DNA from: an uncultured Planctomycetales bacterium
GTDB taxonomy: Bacteria > Omnitrophota > Gorgyraeia > Zapsychrales > Fredricksoniimonadaceae
DNA: 64,000 nt
Direction of reading: 5' to 3'
Assembly: GCA_964572155.1 (NCBI GenBank)
Contig: CAZNDZ010000001.1
Span: 207,300 to 271,299 of the forward strand
In this document: positions 30,783 through 51,910 of the stretch, one piece after another
Layout: the number at the start of each line of letters is the position of its first letter
Numbering within the stretch: the first letter of the stretch is position 1
Translations under genes and position numbers: made by a program
The notes under the pieces: generated by a model
Seen by the model: only the letters and a program-made list of their open reading frames with translations
The model's database searches: none
Told to the model about the DNA's origin: nothing

Positions 30783-30942
30783 AATATGTAACGCTCCCTT
30801 CTTAAGACCCCGTCCTGCGACTTTAAATTTGGTGCAGTAAACTCCATTTCTTAGTGTAAAAGGGAGGTAGCTGAACCAAAAAATTTTTGTGGTTTCCGAT
30901 TAAACTGTTTATGACTTTAAATAACACTTGTGCATTTTAGTC

Positions 30943-30970
30943 TTGACTTTTCTGCAGATGTATGCATAAT
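30943..30970 (+). promoter_or_regulatory. Sigma70-like promoter TTGACT-N16-CATAAT that would start a leaderless transcript at ATG 30978
   Basis: TTGACT at 30943-30948 and CATAAT at 30965-30970. No SD precedes either GTG 30930 or ATG 30978. Confidence 0.3.
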
Positions 30971-30977
30971 AGTCAGC

Positions 30978-37164: not shown

Positions 37165-38027
37165 TAGAAGTCCTTAAATTTAGAAATTTTCCAAATGCTC
37201 AACGCGCCAAGTGTCCATAAGATGATACACGCAACCGTTAATTGTTGTCCCATCGGTGAATCACGCATAACATCAAAAAAATGAGGATTGCTTGACGAGA
37301 CAGCAAAATAGAATAAAACAGGCAAGCCTGTCATGACGACACCTTGGATTTTTCCTTGCACCGTCAATGTGGTTAAGCTTTGTTCAACCTTGCGTCGCTC
37401 GCGGGTGGAGGCAATGATGCGCGAGAAAATAAGCGCCAAGTTCCCCCCTGTTTCACGTGCTAACAAAACAGCGGTGACCACTTGCTGCATCGCTGGTGAC
37501 GGCATGCGCTTATAAAGACGGTTTAAGCTATCGTCCAAGGCAACCCCCATTTTATTTTCACCAAGGACAATACCAAATTCTTGACGCAGGGGATCAGGCA
37601 TTTCTTCGACGACAGACTCAATGGCTTGAATCAAACTCAGACCACCGCGGAACGAACTCGACATGATCATTAACGCATCCATCAATTGATTAGCAAACAT
37701 ACTCTTGCGTTTTGAAATCAAGTAACTTAAATGCACGCGAGGGATAAACACGCCTGCGACAATGCCGACGACAATACCGGCAAATTTCATGTCCGGTGGC
37801 GCAAAATAAACTGCCAAGCCGCCCAACAACAGCGGCACATAAATGATCATCTTCTGCGACTTTTTGATCTGATCTTCATTTAGAACAGCGTCGAACTTTA
37901 CAGCAAATTGTGCCTGACTTTTTTGATTCAAGGCAGCTGCGCGCTCCATCATGAAAGGGACAATGAAAATGACCACGATCATGACAGCCGCAAAAACAAG
38001 TATTAATCCGACGAACAAACTAAACAT
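37164..38027 (-). CDS. tadB: Tad pilus inner-membrane platform protein (T2SS-F domain), TadB-like
   Basis: 287 aa, TM-T2SSF-TM architecture (...MPDPLRQEFGIVLGENKMGVALDDSLNRL...). The stop overlaps the tadC start at 37164. Confidence 0.7.
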   Translation of the reverse strand: MFSLFVGLILVFAAVMIVVIFIVPFMMERAAALNQKSQAQFAVKFDAVLNEDQIKKSQKMIIYVPLLLGGLAVYFAPPDMKFAGIVVGIVAGVFIPRVHLSYLISKRKSMFANQLMDALMIMSSSFRGGLSLIQAIESVVEEMPDPLRQEFGIVLGENKMGVALDDSLNRLYKRMPSPAMQQVVTAVLLARETGGNLALIFSRIIASTRERRKVEQSLTTLTVQGKIQGVVMTGLPVLFYFAVSSSNPHFFDVMRDSPMGQQLTVACIILWTLGALSIWKISKFKDF

Positions 38028-38039
38028 CTTTATTTACCT

Positions 38040-38375
38040 TTATCTATTTGAACAAAATGCTGTCTGACATTCTGTTTTAACATCATCTTCACAAGCATAA
38101 TTGCCAGGTGTGCACGATTGAACTTTTCCTTGATAACAGGTGGCGTCATACCAAATGCCATTATTCGCATCAAGCTGTGAATAATCACATTCGACCGTAT
38201 TGCCATTATAGCGTCGACCCATCCCAAACGCATCGCCGCTTTTCTTCCAACTACCGCCAAACGCGCGGATCACATACGGCGAGATCACAATCATCCCACC
38301 TATGACGATTATAACCAATGCCATGTATTCCACAATAGATGCTGCTGTTTTTTTACGTAACATGATTATGGACAT
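38040..38375 (-). CDS. Flp/TadE-type pilin-like protein with a 7-Cys C-terminal domain
   Basis: Class-III signal-peptide-like N-terminus KKTAASIVEYMALVIIVIGGMIV, then ...VECDYSQLDANNGIWYDATCYQGKVQSCTPGNYACEDDVKTECQTAFCSNR. Confidence 0.6.
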   Translation of the reverse strand: MSIIMLRKKTAASIVEYMALVIIVIGGMIVISPYVIRAFGGSWKKSGDAFGMGRRYNGNTVECDYSQLDANNGIWYDATCYQGKVQSCTPGNYACEDDVKTECQTAFCSNR

Positions 38376-41300
38376 TTCTCAAAGTGAACACCTAACCCAC
38401 CGCTGTTATTGTCCCTGCCATACCGTGCGCAGACAGACGTTGTAACCCCCTTGGGTAATAAATTAAACATAACGTGATCATAACAGGCGCGCCCAGCACC
38501 ATTGAGCGGAGGCTCTCCGCTGATCATAAATGCGCCTTGCAATAGTGGCTTTGTTAAATTCGATGTTTCAACACCCCACACTGAACTTAATTGAGTGAAG
38601 GTGTCTGGATTAGCACTTAAACCTATCTTGTTCCAACTATTCGCGCCACCCGTACAAGGGATGGATGGATTTTGCGCATCTTCTGTCCCTGGCTTTCTAA
38701 AGCTGACCTTCCAAATGGGCATCTTGTTGGCAAAACTTGCCGTATCATGGTCTTCATCCCAGCGCACCACATTCACGCGAGCCATGCCGTCATAATTACG
38801 CAAGAAATAACAACGCGTCATCCCTAAGAATCCTTTTCTCTTGGTGCCAATTGATGGCAATGTCCCCGGCGCTGAAGCAGACACTTGCACCACATGCCAA
38901 TACCCTTCCGTCCTGCCCTTGCCAACCGGAGGATCCGGATCACGCCAGCCATAGATGATAGAATTTGGAATACTGTTTATCTGCGCTGCATTTTGTGCTG
39001 TGCGCGCCGCCACTAAGGCTTGTGCAGGGCCATCAATAAATGTCTTTAGATCGTCGGTAAATTCTTCAACAGCTTCTGTTGCGGAGCTCACATTGGCCAA
39101 AATTGGGCTCAAATAATTATAACGATTCCTGAATTTCTCCTGCTGTCCGCCAGGTCCTGTCATGGCAGCCATGGTATTATCTAACCATGTCTGATATTGT
39201 CCTTTATTATTAACACCCGCAGTACAGACATCATACGGACCTGTGTAATTTCCATACACCGAACGCGGCAATGTTGTTGCTTGATCACATTCAGGGCTTG
39301 GTGGACGATTTGGATTCGTTGCGCAGTATTGCGCAAACGTTTGTTCACCCGCATAACTAGCTTGACTATCTTGCAGCCATTGAGAATACGCGACCGGCGT
39401 GCTGCAATCATCGGGCATCGGCACAATCGCCGACGCTGGTAAATTTTGACAGCTAGCTATTGGGCCATTGGCACAAATTTGACTAATCGTATTGCTACCA
39501 TACTCCGTGATCTTGCTTTGTAGCCATGTGACATACGTATTTCCTAAACATACATTGGCATTTGTAAAACTTGGCTCGCCAGTGGTATTGGCTAATACAG
39601 TGCACGCCGTTGGTTTTGTTGGAGCGCCACAATATTGTGCCCGCGTTTGACCAAAATACGTAATGCTTTGATTAAGCCAATTAATATACTCAGAGTTAAC
39701 TGCGCACCCATCATAAATATCTGGCTTAGCGGGCGATGGCGCTGTTAATGCAAAACTATCGCAATCTGGCGACGGGGGTGCTGTTGGATTGCCGGCACAA
39801 TAACCTGGACCAGCAGCTTTTAATGTATCAATACGAGCTAAACACCCTCTATATTGATCTGATGCTTGGGCTTTGGCCAACGTTGCATTAACCGCTGTCT
39901 GACAAGTGTCAAACGTTTGCGCTTGGATGGCTTTATCATAATCTGTTTTACATGTTTGGAATTTAGCAACCAATGTCCCCGAATTTTTAATCCCTTCAAT
40001 CTTATCTTGGCATCGTTTAAAATAATAATGCGCTCCTGCTTGTGAATCGTAGTCGGAATACCATTTCAAGCATTGAACCACTGTCGGTAACGTGCCCCAC
40101 ACATTGCCTGCTGCAATGGTGTTTTGTTCAAGCGTTGATAAGCCCCCTTGATTGGTTGGCACACACCATGCTGTGTCACTGGAATGATCCTTATCTAACC
40201 AAGGGCGTAAGTGTGTTTCCCCCCATGTTTTAAGTCGGCGATGAAGCGTATATAATGCACCGCCGTCAGCACCATCACTATATCCATTGCCACACACAGC
40301 ATCATTGTTGCCATCACAAACCGGACCAACCCAATCTTTACCGCTTAATTGAGGAGGATTGGGCGTCTCATCATAAAATGTTTCTAGGCTCGTTGATAGG
40401 ACTGCTGGATCCGTCGCTAAAACTGCTTTGCCCCATGCATAAAATAACTTTAAATGATCGATTGTATCGTCGAGTAAATCTTCTGGCCACAAACCGCTGG
40501 TAGATTCCGCAGCTGTACAGCAATCATCCCCGTTATTCACTCCCGCGCAATTATACTTGTCACATTCTTCATAAGGCCAATCTGGCGTGCGGCAAAATGC
40601 TTCCTTGCCGGGCTTCCAGTTCAAACCATCTTCCGGCGCTGTTGTATTAGCACACATGTTTGCAGGTGCAAAAAATTTCGGATCTGAATCCACCGCATCA
40701 GAAATAAGCGCGCTTGGTGCGGTTGCGGCAATATCTGCATCGCTTGGTTTATGACGAATGTCTTGCATATCCCACAATGCTTTAAATAATCCTGTGTTAT
40801 TGGGAGAAGCAGGATTAGTGGTAAAGACATTAGGATACCCGCCAACACGCGCTTCTTCATCAATCCCTAACTTCGATAAGAATGAATCAAATTTTGTATA
40901 ATCTGGTCGTGTTGGGTCATAGGACAAGGGATATGTGCTGCCAAAAGCCCAAACATTGCCATTGTTACAAATTGCGGGAACTTGTGCCCGATCAGGACAA
41001 ATGTTGGCGGCTGGTCTTAAACTCTTGCCCGATTCTGGATCTGTCAATGGCTGACAACAAGGGTTATATCGAGGATCTTTAGATTTTACATCTGGCGCTG
41101 GATTGGAAATCTTTGGTAAAAGGGTGGTCAAGCCACTGGTGAATACACTTAAATCAACGGTTCCACGCTTAGATCTTAAGGCGCGTAATTGCTCCGTGTT
41201 ATAAAATGCATACCGAGAAATAGTATCTTCAGATTTACCGCGATCCACATTAAAACCATGTCGGCCATTACTATTGGAATCAAAATAATCCGTAACCTGC

Positions 41301-41842
41301 GCGGGATCTGTCACCGCATTTTGCAGCGCCCCTTGCAGGGCATTTGATAAAAATGTCTCCGTCGTCGAAAGCCCCGCATCTTTCTGCAATTGATTCCAAT
41401 ACCGCGTCAATCCCGGCTGAACCACCGCCACTTGCAACACCAAGCTTGCTGCGGATAAAGCTATCGATGCGGTTCCAACCGTGATCCCTAAACCAGGCAC
41501 CACTTGACTTAATGCAGCTTGACATGGTGTACAAAAAGTAACAATAATAATTACTAACAACAATGACAACAATGCCCCAAAAATACTGTTGTGTTTACAT
41601 TTCTGAAATGCACCGCCCAACTGCGTGCGCATTTGCATTTCACCGTAGCTCGCATAATTCGACGCCAACGATGACGCCGATGTTGTTGCTGCCACTGTCG
41701 TCACATTCTTAATCTGGGAAATACGACCCCAATTAAGCGTGATCGCAAATAAAATGATCGCAATTGAGCTCATGATGATTAACAATACTGAAGCTTGTCC
41801 GTTTTTCTTATGCATGCATCCTCTAATATTTAACCGCGGCAT
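38366..41842 (-). CDS. Giant (1158 aa) TadG/TadE-family pilin-like protein with a Cys-rich ~50-aa repeat array; putative pilus tip adhesin
   Basis: N-terminus ...MHKKNGQASVLLIIMSSIAIILFAITL (TadE/G-like; the real start may be M10 at 41815). The protein has more than 60 Cys. Repeats: CLKWYSDYDSQAGAHYYFKRCQ, CAVNSEYINWLNQSITYFGQTRAQYCG, CLGNTYVTWLQSKITEYGSNTISQIC, CSTPVAYSQWLQDSQASYAGEQTFAQYC, CTAGVNNKGQYQTWLDNTMAAMTG. Confidence 0.6.
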   Translation of the reverse strand: MPRLNIRGCMHKKNGQASVLLIIMSSIAIILFAITLNWGRISQIKNVTTVAATTSASSLASNYASYGEMQMRTQLGGAFQKCKHNSIFGALLSLLLVIIIVTFCTPCQAALSQVVPGLGITVGTASIALSAASLVLQVAVVQPGLTRYWNQLQKDAGLSTTETFLSNALQGALQNAVTDPAQVTDYFDSNSNGRHGFNVDRGKSEDTISRYAFYNTEQLRALRSKRGTVDLSVFTSGLTTLLPKISNPAPDVKSKDPRYNPCCQPLTDPESGKSLRPAANICPDRAQVPAICNNGNVWAFGSTYPLSYDPTRPDYTKFDSFLSKLGIDEEARVGGYPNVFTTNPASPNNTGLFKALWDMQDIRHKPSDADIAATAPSALISDAVDSDPKFFAPANMCANTTAPEDGLNWKPGKEAFCRTPDWPYEECDKYNCAGVNNGDDCCTAAESTSGLWPEDLLDDTIDHLKLFYAWGKAVLATDPAVLSTSLETFYDETPNPPQLSGKDWVGPVCDGNNDAVCGNGYSDGADGGALYTLHRRLKTWGETHLRPWLDKDHSSDTAWCVPTNQGGLSTLEQNTIAAGNVWGTLPTVVQCLKWYSDYDSQAGAHYYFKRCQDKIEGIKNSGTLVAKFQTCKTDYDKAIQAQTFDTCQTAVNATLAKAQASDQYRGCLARIDTLKAAGPGYCAGNPTAPPSPDCDSFALTAPSPAKPDIYDGCAVNSEYINWLNQSITYFGQTRAQYCGAPTKPTACTVLANTTGEPSFTNANVCLGNTYVTWLQSKITEYGSNTISQICANGPIASCQNLPASAIVPMPDDCSTPVAYSQWLQDSQASYAGEQTFAQYCATNPNRPPSPECDQATTLPRSVYGNYTGPYDVCTAGVNNKGQYQTWLDNTMAAMTGPGGQQEKFRNRYNYLSPILANVSSATEAVEEFTDDLKTFIDGPAQALVAARTAQNAAQINSIPNSIIYGWRDPDPPVGKGRTEGYWHVVQVSASAPGTLPSIGTKRKGFLGMTRCYFLRNYDGMARVNVVRWDEDHDTASFANKMPIWKVSFRKPGTEDAQNPSIPCTGGANSWNKIGLSANPDTFTQLSSVWGVETSNLTKPLLQGAFMISGEPPLNGAGRACYDHVMFNLLPKGVTTSVCARYGRDNNSGGLGVHFEKCP
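39150..40075 (-). repeat. Array of about 5 Cys-bounded 'C..Y..WL......(Y/F)G......(Y)C' repeats (aa ~591-896) in the 1158-aa protein
   Basis: Residue positions counted in the ORF translation: aa 591-612, 713-739, 765-790, 813-840, 872-896. The period is ~50 aa. Confidence 0.55.
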
Positions 41843-42050
41843 TCACGCGCTTTGTTCGATAAAATTCTGGTTGTAACTGCTGACGTACGTCTGTCCCATT
41901 TGTCATCGTGCTCTCATTTTCATAACGGCGTTCCGCTAAATCCATCCCCGCCCAGCGAAAAATCCGAATCATCCCTAAAGCTAATAAACAAATGGCAATC
42001 ATCACAAAGGTCATCTCAATCGTTGATTGGGCCCTTACCTTTCGGGTCAT
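41823..42050 (-). CDS. TadE-like small pilin-like protein (75 aa)
   Basis: KVRAQSTIEMTFVMIAICLLALGMI class-III SP-like N-terminus. Sits between the two large pilin-like genes and overlaps both ends. Confidence 0.5.
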   Translation of the reverse strand: MTRKVRAQSTIEMTFVMIAICLLALGMIRIFRWAGMDLAERRYENESTMTNGTDVRQQLQPEFYRTKRVNAAVKY

Positions 42051-43402
42051 GGTAATTTTCCTTTAGTGTCCGTCAGCCACGCATGCCCTGTTTTGTCTAA
42101 AACGCGTGTACGTATATACAGCATTTTAGAATCTGTGTCGAAACAGGTTAACTTAATATTATCTCCTGAGAAACACGATGACCCTCCCAATATACCCCCG
42201 CCGCCACATGCTTCCACAGGATTTTCTGTATTGTCAGGTAAGGTTGCCCTGGGCACGCCATTAACACAAAAACGTTGTGTGTCTCTGGTTAACTGAAACA
42301 TGCGTTGAACCAGTTCCACTTGATTTTTAACACCCGTGCTGCGCGCATATTGTCCGTCCTCAGGATTATAAAGTTTTCCTTCTTTAACTTCAAAGTATGT
42401 GCCAGGTTTTGTTTGCGTTAAAATGGACATTTCCCGCTGCAAGCCTGGGGTTCTGCCATTGATATACTCAACACTGCCATCATAATCCCCTTCTTGATTG
42501 TCCATGACCGTTGCTGATGATGCAATGCCATTGGCATCCACGTTATACGCGTAAATCTGTTCATCTTGCCCGTCATTGTCTAAATCAAATGAGGTATTTG
42601 TGCTATTGCCCACATCCACATTTAAATCAATAGCCCTAACTGCTTTCCAGTGCCATGCCATATCCGCACGGGCTAATTTGCCATTGGCAGCAGCCACTTG
42701 AGGATCGTCAGTAAAAATGTCATTGCGGTTTAGGTCATACGCTTCTTTATCTGTTAAAACACCTTGGTCTGCATTGGTCGACTGATTATAAAATAGCGGA
42801 CAGCCGTGCCACGTTTCAACAACTGGATTAACAAGCGGATCGCTGGTTGTTCTTAAACACTGAAATTCCCAACCCTTGTATCGTGTGATGCTAGTGTCGT
42901 CTGGATTGGTTGGCGTGATCGCAACGGGGGTTCCTGAATATGAACGTTGAAATCCCGCCGGCGGATCAAATGTTTTTGGCACCAGCGCCGCCGTGGTTAA
43001 AGGAATATGCACACCATTAACATAAAGATCGGTGGTTGGAAAATTACGTGCGTCAGATAATTCTGAACCTTCGAGGGGGTAATACAATAAATTGGTTAAC
43101 ATGCCGCTGCCCATGGTAAAAAGTTGCGTGCGGTCACTGTTGCCATAGCGGCTAATATCTGGTGAAAGTCTGTCTTCTAAATAAATCACACTACTATTCA
43201 TGCGACCAACGGTTCTGGTCAAAGAGTCATTATACGATTGCAAGAGCGCCATGCGCATGGCTTTTAATTGCACATTTTGTTGCTGGCTTGCAGACACACT
43301 GTTGCGGACAATGCCGCCGATCAAAAACACTAAGACAGCACCGAATACAGCTAATTCCGTCGCTGCTTGTGCTTTTTTATGCTTATTGAGAAACAAAAAC
43401 AT
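42047..43402 (-). CDS. TadG/TadE-like large pilin-like protein (~451-463 aa)
   Basis: ...MFLFLNKHKKAQAATELAVFGAVLVFLIGGIV... N-terminus. The track start is 43438; the internal ATG 43402 is preferred because it reduces overlap with the upstream pilin gene. The remainder is hydrophilic and Asp/Asn-rich. Confidence 0.55.
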   Translation of the reverse strand: MFLFLNKHKKAQAATELAVFGAVLVFLIGGIVRNSVSASQQQNVQLKAMRMALLQSYNDSLTRTVGRMNSSVIYLEDRLSPDISRYGNSDRTQLFTMGSGMLTNLLYYPLEGSELSDARNFPTTDLYVNGVHIPLTTAALVPKTFDPPAGFQRSYSGTPVAITPTNPDDTSITRYKGWEFQCLRTTSDPLVNPVVETWHGCPLFYNQSTNADQGVLTDKEAYDLNRNDIFTDDPQVAAANGKLARADMAWHWKAVRAIDLNVDVGNSTNTSFDLDNDGQDEQIYAYNVDANGIASSATVMDNQEGDYDGSVEYINGRTPGLQREMSILTQTKPGTYFEVKEGKLYNPEDGQYARSTGVKNQVELVQRMFQLTRDTQRFCVNGVPRATLPDNTENPVEACGGGGILGGSSCFSGDNIKLTCFDTDSKMLYIRTRVLDKTGHAWLTDTKGKLP

Positions 43403-43709
43403 TCCCACTCTTGCTCTCCGAGGATGACGATGAATCAATGCGATTCGTAAAATATTCTGTCTGCCCTGTTTGTGGATTTAACAACGGAACCGCCTGGACC
43501 ATGGTTTGAGATTGCGCCTGTGATGAATACCTGACGACGGAATTAACTTTCGATGGATCATACTGATCACCAAAATCATCGACGCTTTGCTTCCACCGCC
43601 CCTGAAATCCGCGCTTGATATACGTATTCATGGCCAGAAGCGCGAAAATAACAATCATCGCCAACACAATAAACTCAACCATCGATTGTCCATTATGTTT
43701 AAGTTTCAT
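43383..43709 (-). CDS. Flp-family pilin-like protein 8 (108 aa)
   Basis: MKLKHNGQSMVEFIVLAMIVIFALLAM: G/xxxxEF motif plus a hydrophobic helix. Confidence 0.6.
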   Translation of the reverse strand: MKLKHNGQSMVEFIVLAMIVIFALLAMNTYIKRGFQGRWKQSVDDFGDQYDPSKVNSVVRYSSQAQSQTMVQAVPLLNPQTGQTEYFTNRIDSSSSSESKSGNVFVSQ

Positions 43710-43712
43710 AAC

Positions 43713-44033
43713 TTAATTAATCCCTGCGTTTGTGACTGTATTTGTAAATGTTTGTGACGTTTCACTAACAATGGTTTGTATCCCCGCCGCTGTTTCATAA
43801 ATTTCTTTATTACTGCCCATTGAAACCATGGAATTTGACGTATCTAAATGCGATGATCCCGCACTATAATCTTGCTCAGAATTTTCTTGTGCTGCTAATT
43901 GGTCTGCCGTTGCCTTAATAATGCTTTGCGTTCCACGTTTAAAAGAGGGCGCCATAAAATACACCGCTGTCATCACCACGCCGACGATGATAATATATTC
44001 AACCAAAGATTGTCCCTGCGCATTATATTTCAT
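43713..44033 (-). CDS. Flp-family pilin-like protein 7 (106 aa)
   Basis: MKYNAQGQSLVEYIIIVGVVMTAVYF. Confidence 0.6.
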   Translation of the reverse strand: MKYNAQGQSLVEYIIIVGVVMTAVYFMAPSFKRGTQSIIKATADQLAAQENSEQDYSAGSSHLDTSNSMVSMGSNKEIYETAAGIQTIVSETSQTFTNTVTNAGIN

Positions 44034-44440
44034 TTAGCAGCCTCTGCTGGTGGCAACTGCGCACTGTCCGACCCTATTTGAGTGCTTTGTGCAAAATATT
44101 TTCCCCATCGCCCGTTTTCATCAAGAACCTTTTTATCCACACTATCGCGTCGCACCTCTGCTTCTGACTGGCCATAATATGGCTCATACTCATACGCTAT
44201 TTTTTGCGTTGCTGGATCAACCTTGGCTGCTCCTAAACAATCAACGCCACCGGCCGTTGCCTGCGTGCAGGCTTGGGTCGCCATATCAACCATATAAATT
44301 TTTCCATCACGATGCCTTGCTTGAAGGCCGCGCTGCACATAAAGTGTCATGGCTGAAATGCCTGCCACCACTACAAAAAACAAAAGCACGTATTCGCTGG
44401 TAACCATCTGCCCTTTGCGTGCGTGCTTGAGTTTCATCAT
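44030..44440 (-). CDS. Flp-family pilin-like protein 6 (136 aa)
   Basis: MMKLKHARKGQMVTSEYVLLFFVVVAGISAM; the C-terminal part contains 3 Cys. Confidence 0.55.
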   Translation of the reverse strand: MMKLKHARKGQMVTSEYVLLFFVVVAGISAMTLYVQRGLQARHRDGKIYMVDMATQACTQATAGGVDCLGAAKVDPATQKIAYEYEPYYGQSEAEVRRDSVDKKVLDENGRWGKYFAQSTQIGSDSAQLPPAEAAK

Positions 44441-44543
44441 ATCATCTCTAAATTTGCTTGAATATTATAAGCCCTAAAGGGGGGATATCGCTATCCCCCC
44501 TTATAAGACTTAAGACACCTCTTAACAAAAACACCTTAAGAGA

Positions 44544-44876
44544 CTATTCCCACTTCTCTCTGGAGGTATTAATGATTTGCGATGTTTCTGTTGTTAGATT
44601 GCTTTCAGTACCATTAATTACCGTCTTTGAAACACCTTGACCAGCGGCGCCACCAAATGTTTCGATGGTGTTGCTGTGCGTTGATGTTATTTTAACGGCC
44701 TTGGTATTGTCTGGTGAATATTGATCACCGATATCATCCGCAGATGACTTGACCTTACCTTGGATACCACGTTTGAGGTATGTTTGCACCGCGAGCAATG
44801 CGCCGATGATGATGATGATCAAAATCGCGTATTCAAGCGTGCTTTGAGCTTTCTTATTATTAAAGTGTTTAAACAT
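44544..44876 (-). CDS. Flp-family pilin-like protein 5 (110 aa)
   Basis: MFKHFNNKKAQSTLEYAILIIIIIGALLAV. A strong SD (AAGGAGGAG) precedes the ATG. Confidence 0.65.
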   Translation of the reverse strand: MFKHFNNKKAQSTLEYAILIIIIIGALLAVQTYLKRGIQGKVKSSADDIGDQYSPDNTKAVKITSTHSNTIETFGGAAGQGVSKTVINGTESNLTTETSQIINTSREKWE

Positions 44877-44893
44877 TACAACTCCTCCTTGTA

Positions 44894-45262
44894 TTAGAGC
44901 CCAGTTGGCATGTCGCCTGTACCAGCTGTAACATTATTTGAATATGTGGTTGATTGTTCACCTTGTTTTAAACGAGAATTTGCACTATCAGCTGCAACAA
45001 CACCTTCATCTAATATCTTTTTCTCTGTAGAATCTTTTTGAACAGAATAATTAGATTGTTGGTAATAAGGTTCATATTGCACTGATTTTCCTAATTGGCC
45101 TGTTGAATTAGCCATATAGGTACTGGCGTCACGCACACGGGCTTGCAATGCACGTTGTGCATATTGTTGCATCGCCACGATACCTGCCACAACCAAGGCG
45201 ATTAACAACGCATATTCTGCGGTGTTTTGAGCTTTCTTATTCTTTAATAAATGCTTAAACAT
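44894..45262 (-). CDS. Flp-family pilin-like protein 4 (122 aa)
   Basis: MFKHLLKNKKAQNTAEYALLIALVVAGIVAM; SD AAGGAGGAAATA upstream. Confidence 0.65.
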   Translation of the reverse strand: MFKHLLKNKKAQNTAEYALLIALVVAGIVAMQQYAQRALQARVRDASTYMANSTGQLGKSVQYEPYYQQSNYSVQKDSTEKKILDEGVVAADSANSRLKQGEQSTTYSNNVTAGTGDMPTGL

Positions 45263-45285
45263 ATATTTCCTCCTTATATGGGAAA

Positions 45286-45588
45286 TTAACCTTCACAATT
45301 ATTAGTTGCTGGATTGAATCTTTGATTTCCAGTACACAAACCTTGATTGGCTTGATTGCCAAAAATATTTGTATTAACTGTTGTTGTTGTAAATGTATCT
45401 TGTGCCGTAACCAATTTACCTGCCATGCTGTTAGCTTGTTGGGTTACTTGATCCATAGACGCATTCATTCTTTGCTTGAATGGGCTCGCATCTGAAACTA
45501 AGAAGGCGATTAAGATGACAATCACCCCTGTGACCAAGACGATATATTCTACCGTGCTCTGGCCTTTTTGACGATTTCTTAAAAACAT
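45286..45588 (-). CDS. Flp-family pilin-like protein 3 (100 aa)
   Basis: MFLRNRQKGQSTVEYIVLVTGVIVILIAFLV; SD AGGAGGAACA upstream; 2 Cys near the C-terminus. Confidence 0.65.
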   Translation of the reverse strand: MFLRNRQKGQSTVEYIVLVTGVIVILIAFLVSDASPFKQRMNASMDQVTQQANSMAGKLVTAQDTFTTTTVNTNIFGNQANQGLCTGNQRFNPATNNCEG

Positions 45589-45621
45589 ATGTTCCTCCTG
45601 AAAGTAAGTGGGTTGCTTTGT

Positions 45622-45813
45622 TTAAGGCGTGTTGGCCAAACGCGCTGCCGCGTTGGTCATGCTCACGCTTAATGTGTCCATCGTATTCGTCATCCGACGC
45701 TGAAACAGTGAACCATTCGTTGCCATATAGGCAATTGCCACCATCACAACAGCCGTGACGAGGATAATATACTCGACAGTACTTTGAGCTTTATCCTTTG
45801 ATGGCTTAAACAT
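45622..45813 (-). CDS. flp: Flp pilin (63 aa), candidate major pilin
   Basis: MFKPSKDKAQSTVEYIILVTAVVMVAIAYMA: canonical Flp size and motif. Strong SD AAAGGAGAGGGG upstream. Confidence 0.7.
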   Translation of the reverse strand: MFKPSKDKAQSTVEYIILVTAVVMVAIAYMATNGSLFQRRMTNTMDTLSVSMTNAAARLANTP

Positions 45814-45845
45814 GTGCTCCCCTCTCCTTTTAAGTTTATTAAATA

Positions 45846-45995
45846 TTAATTGGCGAATTCTTGTGTGACAGCTTTTTGGGTCGCTTGCGCGGAACGAAAT
45901 ACATAGGTACTCATCGCTGCAACAGCAGCGGTGATAACAGCCACGACAATGGCATATTCGATCAGGTTTTGTCCACTGGACTTGTGTAGTTGCAT
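45846..45995 (-). CDS. flp: Flp pilin (~49 aa from the internal ATG; 68 aa if from the track start 46052), candidate major pilin
   Basis: MQLHKSSGQNLIEYAIVVAVITAAVAAMSTYVF... An AAAGG lies ~11 nt upstream of ATG 45995. First gene of the pilin run. Confidence 0.6.
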   Translation of the reverse strand: MQLHKSSGQNLIEYAIVVAVITAAVAAMSTYVFRSAQATQKAVTQEFAN

Positions 45996-46120
45996 CGTCG
46001 TGTGACCTTTGTATTTGTTAATGCTGTCCTGGCCCTTAGTTTGTCCCAACAACTCAAACTAATCAAGAACTCTTGGTCGCGGGCCTTCATTTATATTAAA
46101 TCCCCATAGGGGATAGAATT

Positions 46121-46159: not shown

Positions 46160-47641
46160 TCAACCTAGACGCGCCCATATTTTTCGGCCATGTTGGTCAA
46201 TAATATCTAAATTATTTAAAAGCCTGCATGAATGCTCAATCGAATCAAAATCTTTATAACCTTCTGTTCTATCTATGGTTACAACATTTAAACGGGCATT
46301 AAATTGCCTGCGTGTGCGAAGCGCGTTGGCACTATCATCAAATACGCCGAAAAGATGTGCCGCATAGTCTGTTTTTAAGTTGTTTAAAGTCGCATTATCA
46401 GCTTTTTTATCTTCTGGCGCGCTATCTAACGTAAAGGTATGCACATAGCTTAAAACGATGTCTTGATCTGAAGTTGCATTTGCAATATTAGTAATCAAGA
46501 CCCGTTCTGGTTTTCCTTCACTGGACAAAATTACAAAGCCGCGATAGGACTCATCTGCCAAAATAATGTCACGGCTTACAAATTTGACAGGTTGATGCAA
46601 AACATAGGTGTTGACCATTTGGATTGGACTTAAATCACCCGCCATCAAAGAAGCCATGTCTTTATTGGCGACATCTATACCTATAATAAATTGACGCTTT
46701 ACATGCGCAATTGGCGCAAAATCAATCAATACATCTTGATTGGAATCAACAAGCGCAATGCGACTGATTTGCTTTGACGGGTCATTGCTCATAGCTCTTA
46801 AAAAATCGTAAACAGCAGCGTCGAGAAAATCACTTTTAATGTTTTTAATAATCAGTGGTCGGATATTATTAAGCAACGTATCTGCCATCCGCAGCGTCGC
46901 GGTCTCTATTGGCGTTAGTCGCAGGGGCTCACAAAAATTGCGAGCAATATCGTGATGACGCGCATCAATGAAAAAATGACTGTCGTCGCCAAGTTCCACT
47001 TTAAGACAAGCCACGCCAATTTGCCGATACGCCGCTTCCTTGGCAAGGGTTGCTGCATCAACGTTTTCTAAATCGTCGACGGATTTCACACTACCCCATG
47101 GACTTGGAAATAAATCGTTGAACGCTGCTTGGATAAAGAAATCTTTAGCTGTTGCAACATCCGCCCCATCTTCAAGCGGTGGTAAGGTATTGATCGTCGG
47201 TAAATCTGCTTCTCGCGGCGGATCTTGAAATAGTGGGATCATTGGTTCGACACGTAAAGTTAACGGCTCGTCCTGTTGTGCGTCTTCTTTGATGTCGTCT
47301 TGTGAAGACATGATAGGCAAATCTTCAGACGCCATTAATGGCGTCTCTACGGATAATTGTGGAACCGTGGGAATGTTGGCAATGATGGCGGGGGGCAAAC
47401 TGGCAATCAATTGCGCTTTTTTATCGTCGGGGATCTGAAATTTATTTTTAAACTTTCGACCACGCGGACTTACAATGTTAGCTTCTTTAAGCACTTCGTG
47501 CACGGAAGACTTGGATACAACCCGACCAAATTGTTTATCAACTAATTCAACCAACTCTCGACAAGAAAGATTGGCAGATTGTTTTTTCTGGTCCAAGATA
47601 AAAGCAACCACGTCATCCGTTAATTTATACGTTACACCCAT
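46160..47641 (-). CDS. Hypothetical 493-aa protein with an N-terminal HTH-like segment, embedded in the Tad locus
   Basis: MGVTYKLTDDVVAFILDQKKQSANLSCRELVELVDKQFGRVVSKSSVHEVLKEANIV (helix-turn-helix-like), a Pro/Asp-rich linker, then a ~330-aa domain I could not assign. Confidence 0.5.
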   Translation of the reverse strand: MGVTYKLTDDVVAFILDQKKQSANLSCRELVELVDKQFGRVVSKSSVHEVLKEANIVSPRGRKFKNKFQIPDDKKAQLIASLPPAIIANIPTVPQLSVETPLMASEDLPIMSSQDDIKEDAQQDEPLTLRVEPMIPLFQDPPREADLPTINTLPPLEDGADVATAKDFFIQAAFNDLFPSPWGSVKSVDDLENVDAATLAKEAAYRQIGVACLKVELGDDSHFFIDARHHDIARNFCEPLRLTPIETATLRMADTLLNNIRPLIIKNIKSDFLDAAVYDFLRAMSNDPSKQISRIALVDSNQDVLIDFAPIAHVKRQFIIGIDVANKDMASLMAGDLSPIQMVNTYVLHQPVKFVSRDIILADESYRGFVILSSEGKPERVLITNIANATSDQDIVLSYVHTFTLDSAPEDKKADNATLNNLKTDYAAHLFGVFDDSANALRTRRQFNARLNVVTIDRTEGYKDFDSIEHSCRLLNNLDIIDQHGRKIWARLG

Positions 47642-47644
47642 ATA

Positions 47645-47986
47645 TTATGTGATCGTCAGTTCATCCCCTTGTTGAGTTTGCGTCTGATCAATTTTACCAG
47701 CAGGTAATTCAATCGCGCAACAAGAATTAAAGAACAGGGGAGACAAATGATATGGCTTTAATTGACGGCACAAACCAACAACACGATTTTTCTGATCTAG
47801 AAAAATAACATCGATTGCAAAACGCATAAAAAACATGTGCACCGACGAGCAAGGCGTGATCTGTAGGCCTTCTCCATCTGGCAAATAGTTTTCCCCAAGC
47901 AAACCCTTCATGCGTAGTTTGGCTGTGTCCGCAACTCTCAGGCGTGTCGCTAAGATGCTGTTGCGGGTTTTGTTGGTTAGCGTCAT
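47645..47986 (-). CDS. DUF192 (COG1430) family protein, frequently associated with tad loci
   Basis: ...RLRVADTAKLRMKGLLGENYLPDGEGLQITPCSSVHMFFMRFAIDVIFLDQKNRVVGL...CCAIELPAG matches the DUF192 pattern (A...RxxGLMgr...gmlf...vhmf.m.f.lDiifld). Confidence 0.55.
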   Translation of the reverse strand: MTLTNKTRNSILATRLRVADTAKLRMKGLLGENYLPDGEGLQITPCSSVHMFFMRFAIDVIFLDQKNRVVGLCRQLKPYHLSPLFFNSCCAIELPAGKIDQTQTQQGDELTIT

Positions 47987-47988
47987 GT

Positions 47989-50175
47989 TTATGGATTAAA
48001 AATATTCTTAGAAAGTGGGATGCCGCGTGTTTGGAAGTCTTCGAAAATTTTTGGCACATACCCTGTGGGCGTATATTCACCAACAACAACCCCTTCGGCA
48101 TTGATGCCGCGTTGACGGAAGATGAAAATGTCTTTCATTTCAGGAAGGCCGTCGACCATGTTACCTGTAAGCTCCGTGATCGCGGTGATCTTACGCGTCC
48201 CGTCGGAGAAACGGTTAATTTGAATGACAATATTGATCGCAGATGCCGCCATTTCATAGATCGCGCGCAATGGCAATTCAATCCCTGAGAGCAGCACCAT
48301 GGAGGTCACACGAGACATAACGTCGCGTGGTGTGTTGGCGTGAAGCGTTGTCAACGAACCATCGTGACCTGTGTTCATCGCCTGCAACATGTCTAAAACT
48401 TCCGGTCCACGACACTCACCGATAATAATGCGGTCTGGGCGCATACGTAACGTGTTAATAAATAACTCACGGATGGTGATCTTACCACGACCTTCAATGT
48501 TCGCTGGTCTTGCTTCAAGGCGCGCCCAATGTGATTTGGTTAAACGCAATTCCGCCGCGTCTTCGATTGTAATGATGCGTTCATTATCAGGAATAAATTG
48601 TGAAACAATGTTGAGCAGCGTTGTCTTACCAGCGCCGGTACCACCAGAGACAATAATATTCTTACGCCCAATAACGCACGCATTCATAAACTCACCCATG
48701 GCAGGCGTCAGCGAATGAAAACGATTAAGCAAATCATCGATCGTATATTTTTCTTGAGAGAATTTACGAATGGTGATCATGGGGCCGCCCAACGACAACG
48801 GCGGAATGATGGCATTGATACGGCTTCCATCAGGCAAACGCGCATCCACCATCGGCGTTGATTCATCAACCCGACGACCTAAAGGTGCTAAAATACGATC
48901 AATCGTTGCACGCACCTGATCGTTGGAAATAAAACGCTTATTCGTGAGCAGCAATTTACCTTTTTTCTCAACAAAGATTTCATCCTTATTGTTAACCATG
49001 ATGTCATTGATATCGACATCCGCTAAGAAATCTTCCAATGGCCCCAAACCTAAGGCCTCGTTGACAATTTCACGCACAAGTTTAGAACGTTCTTCTTGAG
49101 ATGAAATAAAACTACCCGATGCATCGGTCATCAAATCGGTTACAATAACTTCGGCTGCCTTGCGAATATTTGCAGCTTGCGCAGGATCTGAGAGCGCTTC
49201 CGGCGATATCTTTTGCAAATTCATGCGCTCAACCAACTTTTGATGGATTAAGCGCTTTAATTTAATAACTTCGTCTTCTTCTTTTTTAAAATAAGTCCCG
49301 CCACCAGAGCCCTGCTTAATACCAAATTTTTCCCAGAACTCGGCATCTTTCTTATTCTTAGGGTCTGCCGAGCGAACCTTAACAACGTCGGAGACCTGCA
49401 CAAAGATGTCTTCATCTTGTAATTTATCCGCCATGCCAAAAAACAGCTCGGAGACTTTTGCCTTTGGACTGTCTAAAACACATGGAATACCGCGATTAAG
49501 CGCTGAACCAACGGTTTTACCGTCGGATGGGATTAACGCAAAAATATCGCAAGGCAATGCTGTTTTCACTTCTTGCCATGCAACACCCCCGCGACTTTCA
49601 GCACGATTTAATATGATTTTAATCATACGCAGCGGATAATGCAGTGCTTGCAACATCTCAAGCGTTGACTTGGCTTGATACACCGCCAAGACATCCGGCG
49701 TGGTTGGCAAGAAAATCAAACTAGATTGATCAAGAACGCTAATCAAGACTTCATTAAATGTGCCGCCGCCATCGACGATGATATATTCATATTGTAACAT
49801 GGCGCGTTTTAAAAATATGCGCACATTGTCGCCTGTCACCAAACCTGCTTGCCGTAAATGATTAATGCCAGATAAGAAATCAACGCCGCTAACATGCTTA
49901 ACCACAAAACGACGCATAAAATCTGGGTTGTCATCTTTGGCCACTTCAGCGAGCAAGTCTGCTAAACAAAATGGTGCGGAAATATTTAAGGAACGGGCAA
50001 GATCTTGACCCGCTTGTAAATTCATATCAAGCAACAATACTTTCTTAGCCTTCATGGCAAGCGCGGCAGCAATGTTTGCGCTAATAAAGGTCTTACCGAC
50101 CCCGCCCTTATTGGAAAATATGGTTATGATTTTACAAGACATACTTCTCTTTGGATCATTTTGCCTGGTAGACAA
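47989..50175 (-). CDS. cpaF: Fused Tad secretion ATPases: N-terminal CpaE/TadZ-like ParA/MinD ATPase plus C-terminal CpaF/TadA VirB11-family ATPase (728 aa)
   Basis: N-part: KIITIFSNKGGVGKTFISANIAAALAMKAKKVLLLDMNLQ (deviant Walker A) ...YIIVDGG... C-part: ...IIVSGGTGAGKTTLLNIVSQFIPDNERIITIEDAAELRL...PDRIIIGECRG...NTGHDGSLTTLHAN... (CpaF/TadA Walker A and B, Asp and His boxes). One ORF, no internal stop. Confidence 0.8.
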   Translation of the reverse strand: MSTRQNDPKRSMSCKIITIFSNKGGVGKTFISANIAAALAMKAKKVLLLDMNLQAGQDLARSLNISAPFCLADLLAEVAKDDNPDFMRRFVVKHVSGVDFLSGINHLRQAGLVTGDNVRIFLKRAMLQYEYIIVDGGGTFNEVLISVLDQSSLIFLPTTPDVLAVYQAKSTLEMLQALHYPLRMIKIILNRAESRGGVAWQEVKTALPCDIFALIPSDGKTVGSALNRGIPCVLDSPKAKVSELFFGMADKLQDEDIFVQVSDVVKVRSADPKNKKDAEFWEKFGIKQGSGGGTYFKKEEDEVIKLKRLIHQKLVERMNLQKISPEALSDPAQAANIRKAAEVIVTDLMTDASGSFISSQEERSKLVREIVNEALGLGPLEDFLADVDINDIMVNNKDEIFVEKKGKLLLTNKRFISNDQVRATIDRILAPLGRRVDESTPMVDARLPDGSRINAIIPPLSLGGPMITIRKFSQEKYTIDDLLNRFHSLTPAMGEFMNACVIGRKNIIVSGGTGAGKTTLLNIVSQFIPDNERIITIEDAAELRLTKSHWARLEARPANIEGRGKITIRELFINTLRMRPDRIIIGECRGPEVLDMLQAMNTGHDGSLTTLHANTPRDVMSRVTSMVLLSGIELPLRAIYEMAASAINIVIQINRFSDGTRKITAITELTGNMVDGLPEMKDIFIFRQRGINAEGVVVGEYTPTGYVPKIFEDFQTRGIPLSKNIFNP

Positions 50176-51910
50176 TAGGAATGGTTACATTTAAATCCGA
50201 CGCTTGCATGTCTTTTGAAAATGGAGCGTAAGGCGCCGCGATTTTGGCAGCATTTAACGCATCGTCGTCGAAAGCTTGATGCCCCGAAGACTGCACCACG
50301 TTAGCTGCAATCAATGTCCCATCTTTTTGAATATTTAGTCTTAATTTAACTGTGCCCTGCCATTTATTTTTCAATGCTTCCAGTGGATATGAAATATTTT
50401 GCGATATCTTCACTTGAATATCTTGCATATATTTCTGAACGGTCGCAATCGGCTCTTGAACAGCTACTTCTTTTTTAATCTGCTCTTCTAAGATCGCCTT
50501 GGGCTTCTGCGCCGGCATTTCAACGCGTTTAACCTTTGCTGGCACAACAGCTGGCTCATCTTGTGCTGGCATGGTTGTAACATTACCCATATTAGGATTT
50601 GGATCAACCGGCTCACGCTTATAATTATTTATTTTCTCTGCTTCATCAACAAAATCATTTAATTCCTTCGTTGGTATTACAAATTGATCCTTGGCATATT
50701 TTTTATTATGCACAATAACTGGCGTTAAGGTGATCACAAGTTCCTTGGCTTCATCTGGTGCTTGCTTAGAAGAGCTTCTAAACATCATCCCAACAACGGG
50801 AATCTTTCCTATAAATGGAACGCTTTTCTTTTGATCACTGTCTGTATAACGAATCAACCCCGCCATAACCACCGTTTGTTTATCATCCAACATCAATTGC
50901 GTTGTAGCGTTGCGTGTTTTATAAGCGACACCGTTTGTCGATGTTGCGGCAACAGGAAATGTTGTATCAATGTCGCTGACTTGCAAGTTCATCAACACAT
51001 CGATCTTGCCTTCTTTAATTGTTGGTGTAACTGTAACGGTTAAACCATATTGCTTGAAGGTGACATTGGTTTGTGTGCTGGTCGATGACGCAGATGTTGT
51101 GGTCGACTGGATTGGTACTTCCCCGCCAACATTAATGGTGGCTTCTTTACCGCTGGTTACCAACATGCGTGGGCGTGATAATGTGCGCGCTTTACCTTGA
51201 GACACTAAAAGATTAATGGTGTTGATGATGCTGGTGGTGCGATTAAATTGCCCTAACTTAAACCAGTTGGGAGACCCACCGGTTGTTGGGTTGCCTGATT
51301 CCGCATAAGTTAATGTTGTGCCGCCGCCGCTATTTGTCCAATCAAATCCTAACTTCTTATCAAGTGTTGAGGATAATTCCGTGATCTGCATATCAATCTG
51401 AATTAATTCCTGCGCTTCATCTTCCTTGCACAAATTAATCACTTGTTCAGAAAATGGTTCGAGCACTTTATCTAAACGGGATTTTTGATCTTTATTAACG
51501 TTGCCCGAAAGAACCACTTTGCCTTCCACATAATTAGCATCATAAACAATTGTTGTAATACCAGCATCTTTCAATAGCGTTTCAATGCGTGCTTTAATCC
51601 TTGCTAAGTCATCATTAGCGACGTTGACGGAATAAACCTTCTTGCCACCTTTATCCCAAACAAAAAGGATCGTGTGCCCCATGCGCCTTGCCACAACAGA
51701 AACTTCATTATCATTGGCGTCAGCAATGTCAGCAATGTCAGGATCAGTTACAGAAACGCGAGTTAAACCATCGACCTTAACGTTCTGAACGTCGCCTAGG
51801 ATCATGTTAATATTATGGTCTTCTTGGGCAATGGACATTGTCGCTTGTGACCCTATGAAAAGAAGTCCCAGCGCAACGAAAGATAATTTAATACGGGAGA
51901 TGCGCATCAA
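50156..51910 (-). CDS. cpaC: Tad secretin (CpaC/RcpA) with a C-terminal TonB-C-like domain extension
   Basis: Signal peptide MMRISRIKLSFVALGLLFIGSQATMSIAQ. Secretin C-domain ...VPFIGKIPVVGMMFRSSSKQAPDEAKELVITLTPVIV. The last ~110 aa (...ISYPLEALKNKWQGTVKLRLNIQKDGTLIAANVVQSSGHQAFDDDALNAAKIAAPYAPF...) match the TonB_C signature YP..A...eGtV.v.f.I..dG.v....V..SSG...LD.aA..Av...p..P. Confidence 0.75.
   Translation of the reverse strand: MMRISRIKLSFVALGLLFIGSQATMSIAQEDHNINMILGDVQNVKVDGLTRVSVTDPDIADIADANDNEVSVVARRMGHTILFVWDKGGKKVYSVNVANDDLARIKARIETLLKDAGITTIVYDANYVEGKVVLSGNVNKDQKSRLDKVLEPFSEQVINLCKEDEAQELIQIDMQITELSSTLDKKLGFDWTNSGGGTTLTYAESGNPTTGGSPNWFKLGQFNRTTSIINTINLLVSQGKARTLSRPRMLVTSGKEATINVGGEVPIQSTTTSASSTSTQTNVTFKQYGLTVTVTPTIKEGKIDVLMNLQVSDIDTTFPVAATSTNGVAYKTRNATTQLMLDDKQTVVMAGLIRYTDSDQKKSVPFIGKIPVVGMMFRSSSKQAPDEAKELVITLTPVIVHNKKYAKDQFVIPTKELNDFVDEAEKINNYKREPVDPNPNMGNVTTMPAQDEPAVVPAKVKRVEMPAQKPKAILEEQIKKEVAVQEPIATVQKYMQDIQVKISQNISYPLEALKNKWQGTVKLRLNIQKDGTLIAANVVQSSGHQAFDDDALNAAKIAAPYAPFSKDMQASDLNVTIPIVYQAK
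50159..50500 (-). other. TonB-C-like domain fused to the secretin C-terminus
   Basis: See above; coordinates derived from residue positions ~470-584. Confidence 0.5.

Follow-up and report, generated by a model that had tools for sequence, protein, structure and literature searches.

The closest described systems to the locus reported here are the Tad/Flp pili of Aggregatibacter, Caulobacter and Pseudomonas, the Kil pilus of Myxococcus xanthus and the Epd pilins of Methanococcus maripaludis. Tad/Flp systems combine CpaB/RcpC, a CpaC-type secretin, TadZ, TadA and split TadB and TadC proteins with one to three short Flp pilins that carry a G/xxxxEY-type processing site, and TadE-like and TadG-like proteins are encoded downstream. 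The Kil pilus, which belongs to a contact-dependent predator, is built by a Tad-like machine from 15 pilins split into major, adapter and tip roles: KilP is the major Flp pilin, KilK and KilO are Flp adapters and KilL, KilM and KilN form TadE/F/G-like tip trimers, with a large modular tip pilin (PMC12075869). Epd pilins (PF04021, UPF0333) comprise one short major pilin and several minor pilins with a [K/R][G/A]Q site, Gln at +1 and Glu at +5, and a single peptidase, EppA, cuts both RAQ (EpdA) and KGQ (EpdB-E) and requires the Gln at +1 (PMC4371748, PMC3875500). The major pilins of Tad and Epd systems are characteristically short, and an archaeal Epd-like system has been proposed as the ancestor of Tad systems (PMC6668835). 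A locus in the Omnitrophota has been termed the Tad complex of Velamenicoccia (Seymour et al., PMC10066038), and small class III signal peptide genes beside giant genes have been reported there in a locus described as type II secretion-like (West-Roberts et al., bioRxiv 10.1101/2023.11.21.568195). Here we describe an array of eight tandem pilin genes, and the genes that accompany it, in such a locus on a 64,000-nucleotide (nt) stretch of contig CAZNDZ010000001.1 (assembly GCA_964572155.1, positions 207,300 to 271,299), hereafter the window. We propose, with a probability of roughly 60%, that the eight are the first of twelve pilin-like genes in an Omnitrophota Tad-like (type IVc filament) locus and that they have fixed roles, gene 1 supplying the fibre and the others minor or tip pilins.

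The minus strand at 43383-45995 contains eight consecutive open reading frames (ORFs), and gene callers run on independent assemblies gave the same eight sizes. In gene order they are as follows (lengths in amino acids, aa).

45846-45995, minus strand: gene 1, 49-aa Flp-like prepilin with leader MQLHKSSG and a predicted mature part of 41 aa; candidate fibre (major) subunit
45622-45813, minus strand: gene 2, 63-aa short prepilin, KAQSTVEY, predicted mature part of 54 aa; paralogue of gene 3
45286-45588, minus strand: gene 3, 100-aa prepilin, KGQSTVEY, with a C-terminal Cys pair
44894-45262, minus strand: gene 4, 122-aa prepilin, KAQNTAEY, with a YEPYY motif; paralogue of gene 6
44544-44876, minus strand: gene 5, 110-aa prepilin, KAQSTLEY, with the motif KRGIQG..DDIGDQYSP
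44030-44440, minus strand: gene 6, 136-aa prepilin, KGQMVTSEY (Glu at +6), with a Cys pair and a YEPYY motif
43713-44033, minus strand: gene 7, 106-aa prepilin, QGQSLVEY; its start overlaps the stop of gene 6
43383-43709, minus strand: gene 8, 108-aa prepilin, NGQSMVEF; paralogue of gene 5

All eight products share the same N-terminal organisation. A short basic leader and a small residue precede the Gln; a spacer of three residues, or four in gene 6, separates it from Glu-Tyr (Glu-Phe in gene 8), after which comes a hydrophobic stretch of about 20 residues. This common class III leader and hydrophobic helix bear out the tandem array of eight pilin genes proposed in an earlier, sequence-only reading of the window. 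The motif [G/A]-Q-x3-E-Y is present in six of the eight genes, with E-F in gene 8 and E-Y shifted by one residue in gene 6, and the Gln and the Glu are the only invariant columns in an alignment of nine sequences (genes 1-8 and a 75-aa protein described below). Several details of the sequence-only reading required correction. The array had been extended to 46052, which is an upstream TTG; the ATG at 45995, which yields the 49-aa product, agrees with the orthologues and with the independent gene calls. The sizes had been called graded, but their order (49, 63, 100, 122, 110, 136, 106 and 108 aa) is non-monotonic; predicted mature lengths are 41 and 54 aa for genes 1 and 2 and 91-126 aa for genes 3-8. 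The tails of the long products are rich in Ser/Thr/Asn/Gln, as claimed, in five of the six (37-48%, against 22% in the window's large ORFs) but not in gene 6 (19%), and where several genes had been credited with two or three Cys there are two each in genes 3 and 6, none in the other six and nowhere three. Genes 2-5 are preceded by AGGAGG-type ribosome-binding sites, and each of genes 7 and 8 is coupled to the stop codon of the gene before it.

The composition of the array is conserved in related loci, where each paralogue has a one-to-one orthologue. Locus L005 has the same ten leader-bearing genes (the eight and the two that follow them) with their order kept, and L001 has the first nine in order, after which its contig ends. 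In the distant L095, whose gene 5 is ~52-55% identical, all eight orthogroups and the large and small proteins that follow are recognisable and the gene 2-like gene alone has been relocated; most of the eight are recognisable in L094. Arrays of 6-12 such genes lie downstream of the ATPase in L007, L008, L010, L011 and L018. In metagenome loci whose fused ATPase is at 37-42% identity, and which most likely belong to other phyla, the ATPase is preceded by one to four short genes of Flp type.

Orthologue pairs between the window and L005 or L001 are 49-86% identical and evolve under purifying selection, with ratios of nonsynonymous to synonymous substitution rates (dN/dS) of 0.06-0.28 wherever dS could be estimated; because dS is saturated in several pairs, these values are rough, and they are pairwise, not site-wise. 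No sign of diversifying selection was seen in these pairs. Their tails change faster than their N-termini (43-75% against 63-100% identity), and over the close relatives conservation is highest in the mature part of gene 1 (97-100% identical in L005 and L001). Gene-specific features are also retained: the Cys pair of gene 3 is kept in L001 and L005 (it is absent in L095), the one-residue shift that places Glu at +6 in gene 6 is kept in L001, L005 and L095, and gene 7 has orthologues in L001, L005, L010, L094 and L095. The recurrence of the orthogroups, the order kept in close relatives and the mostly low dN/dS disfavour the antigenic diversification of the fibre surface suggested in the sequence-only reading, as does the shortness of the DNA tracts that the paralogues share (below). 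The functional diversification it offered as the other option stands only in the form of fixed, separate structural roles and not as a varying fibre surface; on the sequence evidence, the products appear to be stable components with separate roles rather than a rapidly varying surface.

Further afield, 73 homologues of gene 1 (48-55 aa) have a near-invariant mature sequence (...EYAIVVA..AA.AAMSTYVFRS.QATQK...); some were named Flp by the Joint Genome Institute (JGI), and four of the 73 have a precomputed PF04964 match. Full-length homologues of gene 5 number 766 (50-83% identity); they are named hypothetical, UPF0333 or Flp, and their organism, where given, is Omnitrophota. The C-terminal 75 residues of gene 5 alone retrieved just 19 representative clusters in 1.84 billion proteins, nearly all of them ~110 aa long with the same layout, which suggests that the head of gene 5 is a narrow, family-specific domain.

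The eight genes are old, anciently diverged paralogues. Pairwise protein identities among them are 23-44%, and the closest relationships are between genes 2 and 3 (41% over 59 aa, E 5e-17), genes 4 and 6 (41%, E 3e-21) and genes 5 and 8 (47% over 60 aa, E 1e-19); genes 1 and 7 have no paralogue partner. At the DNA level the only similarity is a 48-nt stretch covering the leader and the start of the helix (60-78% identity), and exact matches between two of the genes reach 16 nt at most. The search for gene-conversion or recombination tracts that the sequence-only reading had suggested was run on the array DNA and found none among the eight paralogues.

The leader motif and the machinery context together corroborate the identification of the eight as pilin-type proteins of a Tad-like system. 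Compared with Flp pilins, the G/xxxxEY site and the ~20-residue hydrophobic stretch are present, with Ala for Gly in three of the eight, and tad-type machinery lies alongside (CpaB, a secretin, a TadZ-like plus T2SSE ATPase and two T2SSF proteins); genes 1 and 2 fit the Flp length (~40-60 aa mature, helix only) and genes 3-8 do not. The pattern of EppA substrates, [K/R][G/A] with Gln at +1 and Glu at +5, is also found (Glu at +6 in gene 6). Among 85 array members from ten loci, matches at E<=0.01 were to Class_IIIsignal (18), Flp_Fap (13), Flp1_like (3) and TadE (2), making Class_IIIsignal the most frequent family (best E 2.2e-6). An NCBIfam search with ten pilin-like proteins gave nothing useful, and PDB sequence searches with a gene 5 profile and with gene 1 gave no meaningful match. 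An AlphaFold2 (AF2) model of gene 5, built from a 114-sequence alignment (mean predicted local distance difference test score, pLDDT, 74; predicted template modelling score, pTM, 0.30), has a helix at residues 11-50 that begins exactly at the predicted mature N-terminus and four beta-strands within residues 58-101, the element order of a small type IV pilin.

The array had been taken to end with gene 8; however, the next two genes share its leader and two more have pilin-like N-termini, so that twelve proteins with pilin-type N-termini are encoded between a 493-aa gene and tadB. The four further genes are the following.

42047-43402, minus strand: large pilin-like protein (KKAQAATELAVFG), 451 aa, leader KKAQAATEL, with an N-terminal pilin helix and a beta-rich domain
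41823-42050, minus strand: 75-aa pilin-like protein (RAQSTIEMTFVM), leader RAQSTIEM, TadE-like
38366-41842, minus strand: 1158-aa protein with a pilin-like N-terminus (KKNGQASVLLIIM...), putative TadG-like large pseudopilin
38040-38375, minus strand: 111-aa Cys-rich pilin-like protein, KKTAASIVEY..., without Gln at +1 and with eight Cys

The leader with Gln at +1 is found in all ten products of genes 1-8 and the 451-aa and 75-aa genes, with Glu at +5 in nine of the ten and at +6 in gene 6. The 451-aa protein is a candidate tip subunit. It has 118 homologues, all from Omnitrophota or unnamed, and no Pfam domain; three Cys are invariant in the family and one is nearly invariant (C379, C399, C410, C420), and there are conserved Asp-rich motifs (DVDGD). 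Its AF2 model (pLDDT 88, pTM 0.82) has a helix at residues 7-61 followed by a large beta-rich domain, for which a Foldseek search against the PDB returned no fold match (best E 1.1). The 75-aa protein scores 14.3 bits on TadE (PF07811), under the cut-off of 22.9, and keeps its position after the large pilin in L005, L010, L094 and L095. The 1158-aa protein starts with KKNGQASVLLIIMSS... and has three hydrophobic segments. Orthologues of it in L007, L011, L008 and L094 score 22.5, 22.7, 21.6 and 15.4 bits on PF13400 (Tad, TadE/G-like; cut-off 22.3), and the scores in L007, L008 and L011 suggest that it is a TadG-like large pseudopilin; the window's own copy has no PF13400 match. The 111-aa protein resembles gene 8 past the helix, has orthologues in L094, L095 and L008 and has no Pfam match.

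The window's sequence places it in Candidatus Omnitrophota; its fused ATPase is 88-92% identical to those of Candidatus Omnitrophota metagenome-assembled genomes. On the minus strand, dnaA, dnaN, gyrB, gyrA and a few metabolic genes are followed by a peptidyl-prolyl isomerase gene, CpaB/RcpC, the secretin and TadZ-TadA, and then by a DUF192 gene, the gene for the 493-aa protein, the pilin block, two T2SSF genes, a gene for a 1352-aa secreted protein and a giant ORF. The components other than the pilins are the following.

51907-52785, minus strand: CpaB/RcpC, with RcpC (PF16976) and the NCBIfam CpaB equivalog TIGR03177 (101 bits, cut-off 71)
50156-51910, minus strand: secretin (PF00263) with a CpaC-type N-domain (PF13629) and a C-terminal TonB_C domain
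47989-50175, minus strand: fused TadZ-like (ParA/MinD) and TadA/CpaF-like ATPase, 728 aa, with CbiA/AAA_31 at residues 14-218 and T2SSE at 375-652
47645-47986, minus strand: DUF192 protein, between the ATPase and the pilin block
46160-47641, minus strand: 493-aa protein with no assigned family, encoded between the ATPase gene and the pilin block
36226-38027, minus strand: two TadB/TadC-like inner-membrane platform genes, one T2SSF domain each (PF00482, 58.0 and 67.6 bits)
32104-36162, minus strand: 1352-aa protein that lacks a Pfam family and has a signal-peptide-like N-terminus; its gene lies between tadC and the giant gene
2-30508, minus strand: giant gene, a single ORF cut off by the window start after at least 10,150 codons; it lies downstream of the Tad-like locus

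The best NCBIfam match of the fused ATPase is to the TadA family (320 bits, cut-off 373), and its GspE scores are just 36-38 bits. The TadZ-TadA fusion is present in many of 80 metagenome loci retrieved, including ones at 37-42% identity with ordinary short Flp genes upstream, and the TonB_C domain of the secretin is kept in L092, L094, L095 and a JGI contig. The DUF192 and 493-aa genes have mostly the same positions in L091-L095 and the JGI contig, with DUF192 missing from L095; counterparts of the 493-aa protein in related loci are 345-493 aa long and have only a weak N-terminal match to HTH_32. The architecture is repeated in L094 and in the JGI contig, the latter with a gene for a 24,796-aa protein adjoining. 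A DUF4143/AAA_14 ATPase is encoded at 30930-32099 on the plus strand, just upstream of the start of the giant gene.

With Tad/Flp systems the locus shares the machinery described above, from CpaB/RcpC to split TadB/TadC, as well as a short pilin with a G/xxxxEY-type site and TadE-like and TadG-like proteins downstream. It differs from them in having eight Flp-derived paralogues where those systems have one to three, with six of the eight longer by ~60-100 residues and bearing a predicted beta head; in the invariant Gln at +1 and the frequent Ala at -1, with none of the eight at the Flp_Fap or TadE cut-off; in the TadZ-TadA fusion and the TonB_C domain on the secretin; and in the lack of a TadV/CpaA peptidase gene and of TadD in the locus. 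With Kil it shares a Tad-like machine in a predator (here a probable one), many pilins with a division, here proposed, into major, adapter and tip roles, and a large modular candidate tip pilin, and in Kil too the peptidase question is only partly settled (PMC12075869). Kil pilins, which are in part redundant alternatives, are spread over four tip clusters (PMC12075869), whereas the twelve genes here form one block of single-copy conserved orthogroups; no sequence-family match was demonstrated. With Epd pilins it shares the [K/R][G/A]Q site with mixed Gly and Ala, Gln at +1 and Glu at +5, as well as a short candidate major pilin accompanied by several putative minor ones, and the nearest Pfam signal is Class_IIIsignal. 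Unlike Epd, the present system is that of a diderm bacterium and includes a secretin and CpaB; its genes score under the PF04021 cut-off, and Tyr is found at +6, which Epd pilins lack (PMC3875500). In the Omnitrophota pilins a predicted Epd-type site thus occurs together with the Flp motif's Glu-Tyr, a combination that would agree with the descent of Tad from an Epd-like archaeal system. The block also recalls the minor-pilin sets of type IVa pili (FimU, PilV, PilW, PilX, PilE) and of type II secretion systems (T2SSs; GspH, GspI, GspJ, GspK), which are co-encoded low-abundance pilins in blocks of four to five or more and are thought to prime assembly and cap the filament. No sequence relation to those sets was found, however; the heads of the present pilins are far smaller, and the machinery is of another type.

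Under our proposal, each product would be made with a class III signal peptide and inserted in the membrane, where a prepilin peptidase would cut between Gly/Ala and the invariant Gln, leaving a mature protein in which Glu stands at +5 (+6 in gene 6) and whose hydrophobic alpha-helix would pack into the core of the filament. Gene 1, whose mature part of 41 aa is Flp-sized and near-invariant across the phylum, would polymerise into the fibre, and gene 2 would be a short accessory or adapter pilin. Genes 3-8 would encode low-abundance pilins with a small beta-sheet head and a Ser/Thr/Asn/Gln-rich surface, which together with the 75-aa, 451-aa, 1158-aa and 111-aa proteins may prime assembly and form or decorate a tip contacting host or prey. 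This allocation of roles is drawn from analogy with the Myxococcus Kil pilus and from the short major pilins of Tad and Epd systems.

Several observations weigh against this proposal. None of the eight genes reaches a Pfam or NCBIfam threshold: genes 2, 3 and 5 score 21.8, 20.2 and 15.5 bits on Class_IIIsignal (PF04021, cut-off 23.7), gene 4 scores 14.5 and gene 1 scores 11 bits on Flp_Fap (PF04964, cut-off 32.2), and gene 8 scores 13.8 bits on TadE (PF07811, cut-off 22.9). The label of classical Flp pilins, which the sequence-only reading had given to genes 1 and 2, is thus not supported by Pfam, the best Flp_Fap score among the eight being 14.5 bits. The gene 5 model has no significant neighbour in the PDB by Foldseek (an archaeal type IV pilin is fourth, E 0.71), so the support for a pilin fold comes from the order of its secondary-structure elements. 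Neither an A24 prepilin peptidase domain nor the motif G.GD[VIL][KR] was found in the window or in nine related loci, and the peptidase presumably lies elsewhere in the genome (1.34 Mb). Finally, of the first five genes it is gene 1 whose Shine-Dalgarno sequence is weakest, and no hairpin comes after it; a strong hairpin and the 766 homologues belong to gene 5, which makes the assignment of the major subunit uncertain.

The last of these points bears on the main alternative, namely that gene 5, alone or with its relatives, is the main fibre subunit and that genes 1 and 2 are adapter or minor Flp-like pilins comparable to KilK and KilO. Such a fibre would resemble archaeal type IV pili, whose ~100-aa pilins have a beta head and a Ser/Thr-rich, possibly glycosylated surface. 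Gene 5 has a strong AGGAGG ribosome-binding site, is conserved over its full length in its 766 homologues and has a predicted helix-plus-sheet architecture, and short Flp-type pilins serve as adapters in Myxococcus (PMC12075869). It is also followed directly by the only long intergenic gap inside the pilin block, which contains a structurally conserved element.

44468-44512, minus strand: GC-rich RNA hairpin directly after gene 5 (minimum free energy of the region -40.7 kcal/mol, z -5.2)
L005 14897-14995; L001 15597-15694; L095 9328-9447; L010 6471-6600: counterparts of the hairpin (z -3.8 to -9.5)

The position and structure of the hairpin are conserved in these loci, five genomes with the window's own, while its sequence differs; a U-rich run follows it in several, and it is absent in L007. 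A consensus terminator scan missed it, and a consensus promoter scan gave 22 matches against a shuffled expectation of 16.3 +/- 3.9, from which we claim no promoter. It is probably an attenuator, a terminator or a 3' stabiliser of the upstream message, dividing genes 1-5 from genes 6-12, and it would set different transcript levels for the two groups. Terminators often follow major pilin genes, but four other genes also precede this hairpin, so that gene 5 is not singled out by it. Major pilins in Tad and Epd-like systems are, moreover, typically short (PMC6668835), and it is the mature part of gene 1 that is most conserved over close relatives. We consider both a gene 5 fibre and its resemblance to archaeal type IV pili unlikely, and retain gene 1 as the preferred candidate for the fibre.

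A second alternative is that the locus builds a short periplasmic pseudopilus, a T2SS-like piston that exports the giant protein or hydrolases, and not an external adhesive pilus. The locus is kept immediately upstream of giant genes in many Omnitrophota and has been described as type II secretion-like (bioRxiv 10.1101/2023.11.21.568195), and one abundant subunit with many minor pseudopilins is the T2SS pattern. The parts, however, are of Tad type, with CpaB above its cut-off, a TadZ domain, split TadB/C and an ATPase nearest to TadA and far from GspE; folded passage of a protein of more than 10,000 aa through the secretin is unlikely; and homologues of GspC, GspL and GspM were not seen among the window proteins. 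This leads us to regard a pseudopilus as quite improbable. A bolder version of the filament reading, in which the locus builds an Epd/Tad hybrid filament of an undescribed kind, coupled to the giant protein, with beta-head Flp-derived pilins either stoichiometric in the fibre or arranged in an elaborate tip, is in our view about equally doubtful.

A third alternative treats the paralogues as alternative fibre subunits that vary an antigenic or adhesive surface, with two peptidases for the Gly and Ala leaders. The faster divergence of the tails and their Ser/Thr/Asn/Gln-rich composition speak for it, as does the dedicated peptidase that Myxococcus uses for a subset of Kil pilins (PMC12075869). 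Gly and Ala do both occur at -1, as the sequence-only reading had stated, but they do not alternate regularly: in the order of genes 1-8 the residues are G, A, G, A, A, G, G and G, with Ala in three of the eight, and over ten arrays there are 64 Gly and 32 Ala. The two also flip within orthogroups. The gene 1 family has 50 Gly and 21 Ala (Gln at +1 in 71 of 71), the gene 5 family 100 Gly and 14 Ala (Gln in 114 of 114) and the 451-aa family 18 Gly, 60 Ala and one Asp (Gln in 79 of 79), and Glu at +5 is invariant in both of the families where it was tallied. Gene 4 has Ala in the window and L005 and Gly in L001, and gene 8 has Gly in the window and Ala in L005 and L001. Because Gly and Ala swap inside single orthogroups, the -1 residue is not a class marker. 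One tolerant peptidase would suffice, which fits the data, since the same mixture of sites, RAQ and KGQ, is served by EppA alone in M. maripaludis (PMC4371748); of the two explanations that the sequence-only reading had offered, relaxed recognition by one peptidase is thus favoured by the swaps, and two specificities are poorly supported. Together with the one-to-one orthologues in conserved order across genomes whose ATPases are ~50-90% identical, dN/dS well under 1, the absence of recombination or gene-conversion tracts among the eight and the 16-nt limit on shared matches, this makes interchangeable surface subunits very unlikely.

Finally, that the array is an assembly expansion of fewer genes, the outcome that the sequence-only reading had named as its refutation, is practically excluded: over its 4,401 nt the region matches an independent assembly of SRR30545106 at 100% identity without gaps, assemblies of SRR10036059 and SRR10036058 are likewise identical wherever they cover it, paralogues at 23-44% identity offer no repeat long enough to confuse an assembler, and nothing in favour was found for the window, the nearest hint being a near-identical duplicated three-gene block with Ns in the related contig L094. 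Recent tandem duplication was rejected together with an assembly artefact on the 48-nt repeats at 60-78%, the 16-nt maximum match and the identical assemblies. The L094 block, in which three pilin genes occur twice at 6609-9342 with a run of N between the copies, may reflect either a true segmental duplication or an error of assembly or scaffolding.

The machinery of this locus already has a name, and many small genes with class III signal peptides are mentioned in one sentence of published work. We found no published analysis of these small pilin-like genes, which the literature mentions in passing, and a later paper on a culture of Velamenicoccus archaeovorus does not mention pili. What is new is the set of twelve pilin-like genes, with eight Flp-derived orthogroups conserved across the phylum in a set that is both large and stable; the predicted Epd-type processing site on Flp-like pilins; two modelled head or tip domains without a PDB match; and the conserved RNA hairpin that divides the block. 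For pilus specialists this is a useful, not a startling, extension of the minor-pilin and tip concept lately shown for Myxococcus. Since the set combines the Epd rule of Gln at +1 with the Flp Glu-Tyr motif, it also bears on the relation between Tad and Epd systems. Omnitrophota are abundant, uncultured, ultra-small bacteria, at least one of which preys on archaea and bacteria, and the Tad-like locus beside the giant gene is their sole conserved candidate attack apparatus; the genes described here provide a parts list for proteomics, cryo-electron microscopy and modelling of the contact organelle. If the hybrid filament outlined above were to prove real, a twelve-pilin apparatus could, for example, present or anchor a giant protein of more than 10,000 aa on prey, and the pilin set would be key to how these nanobacteria attack other cells.

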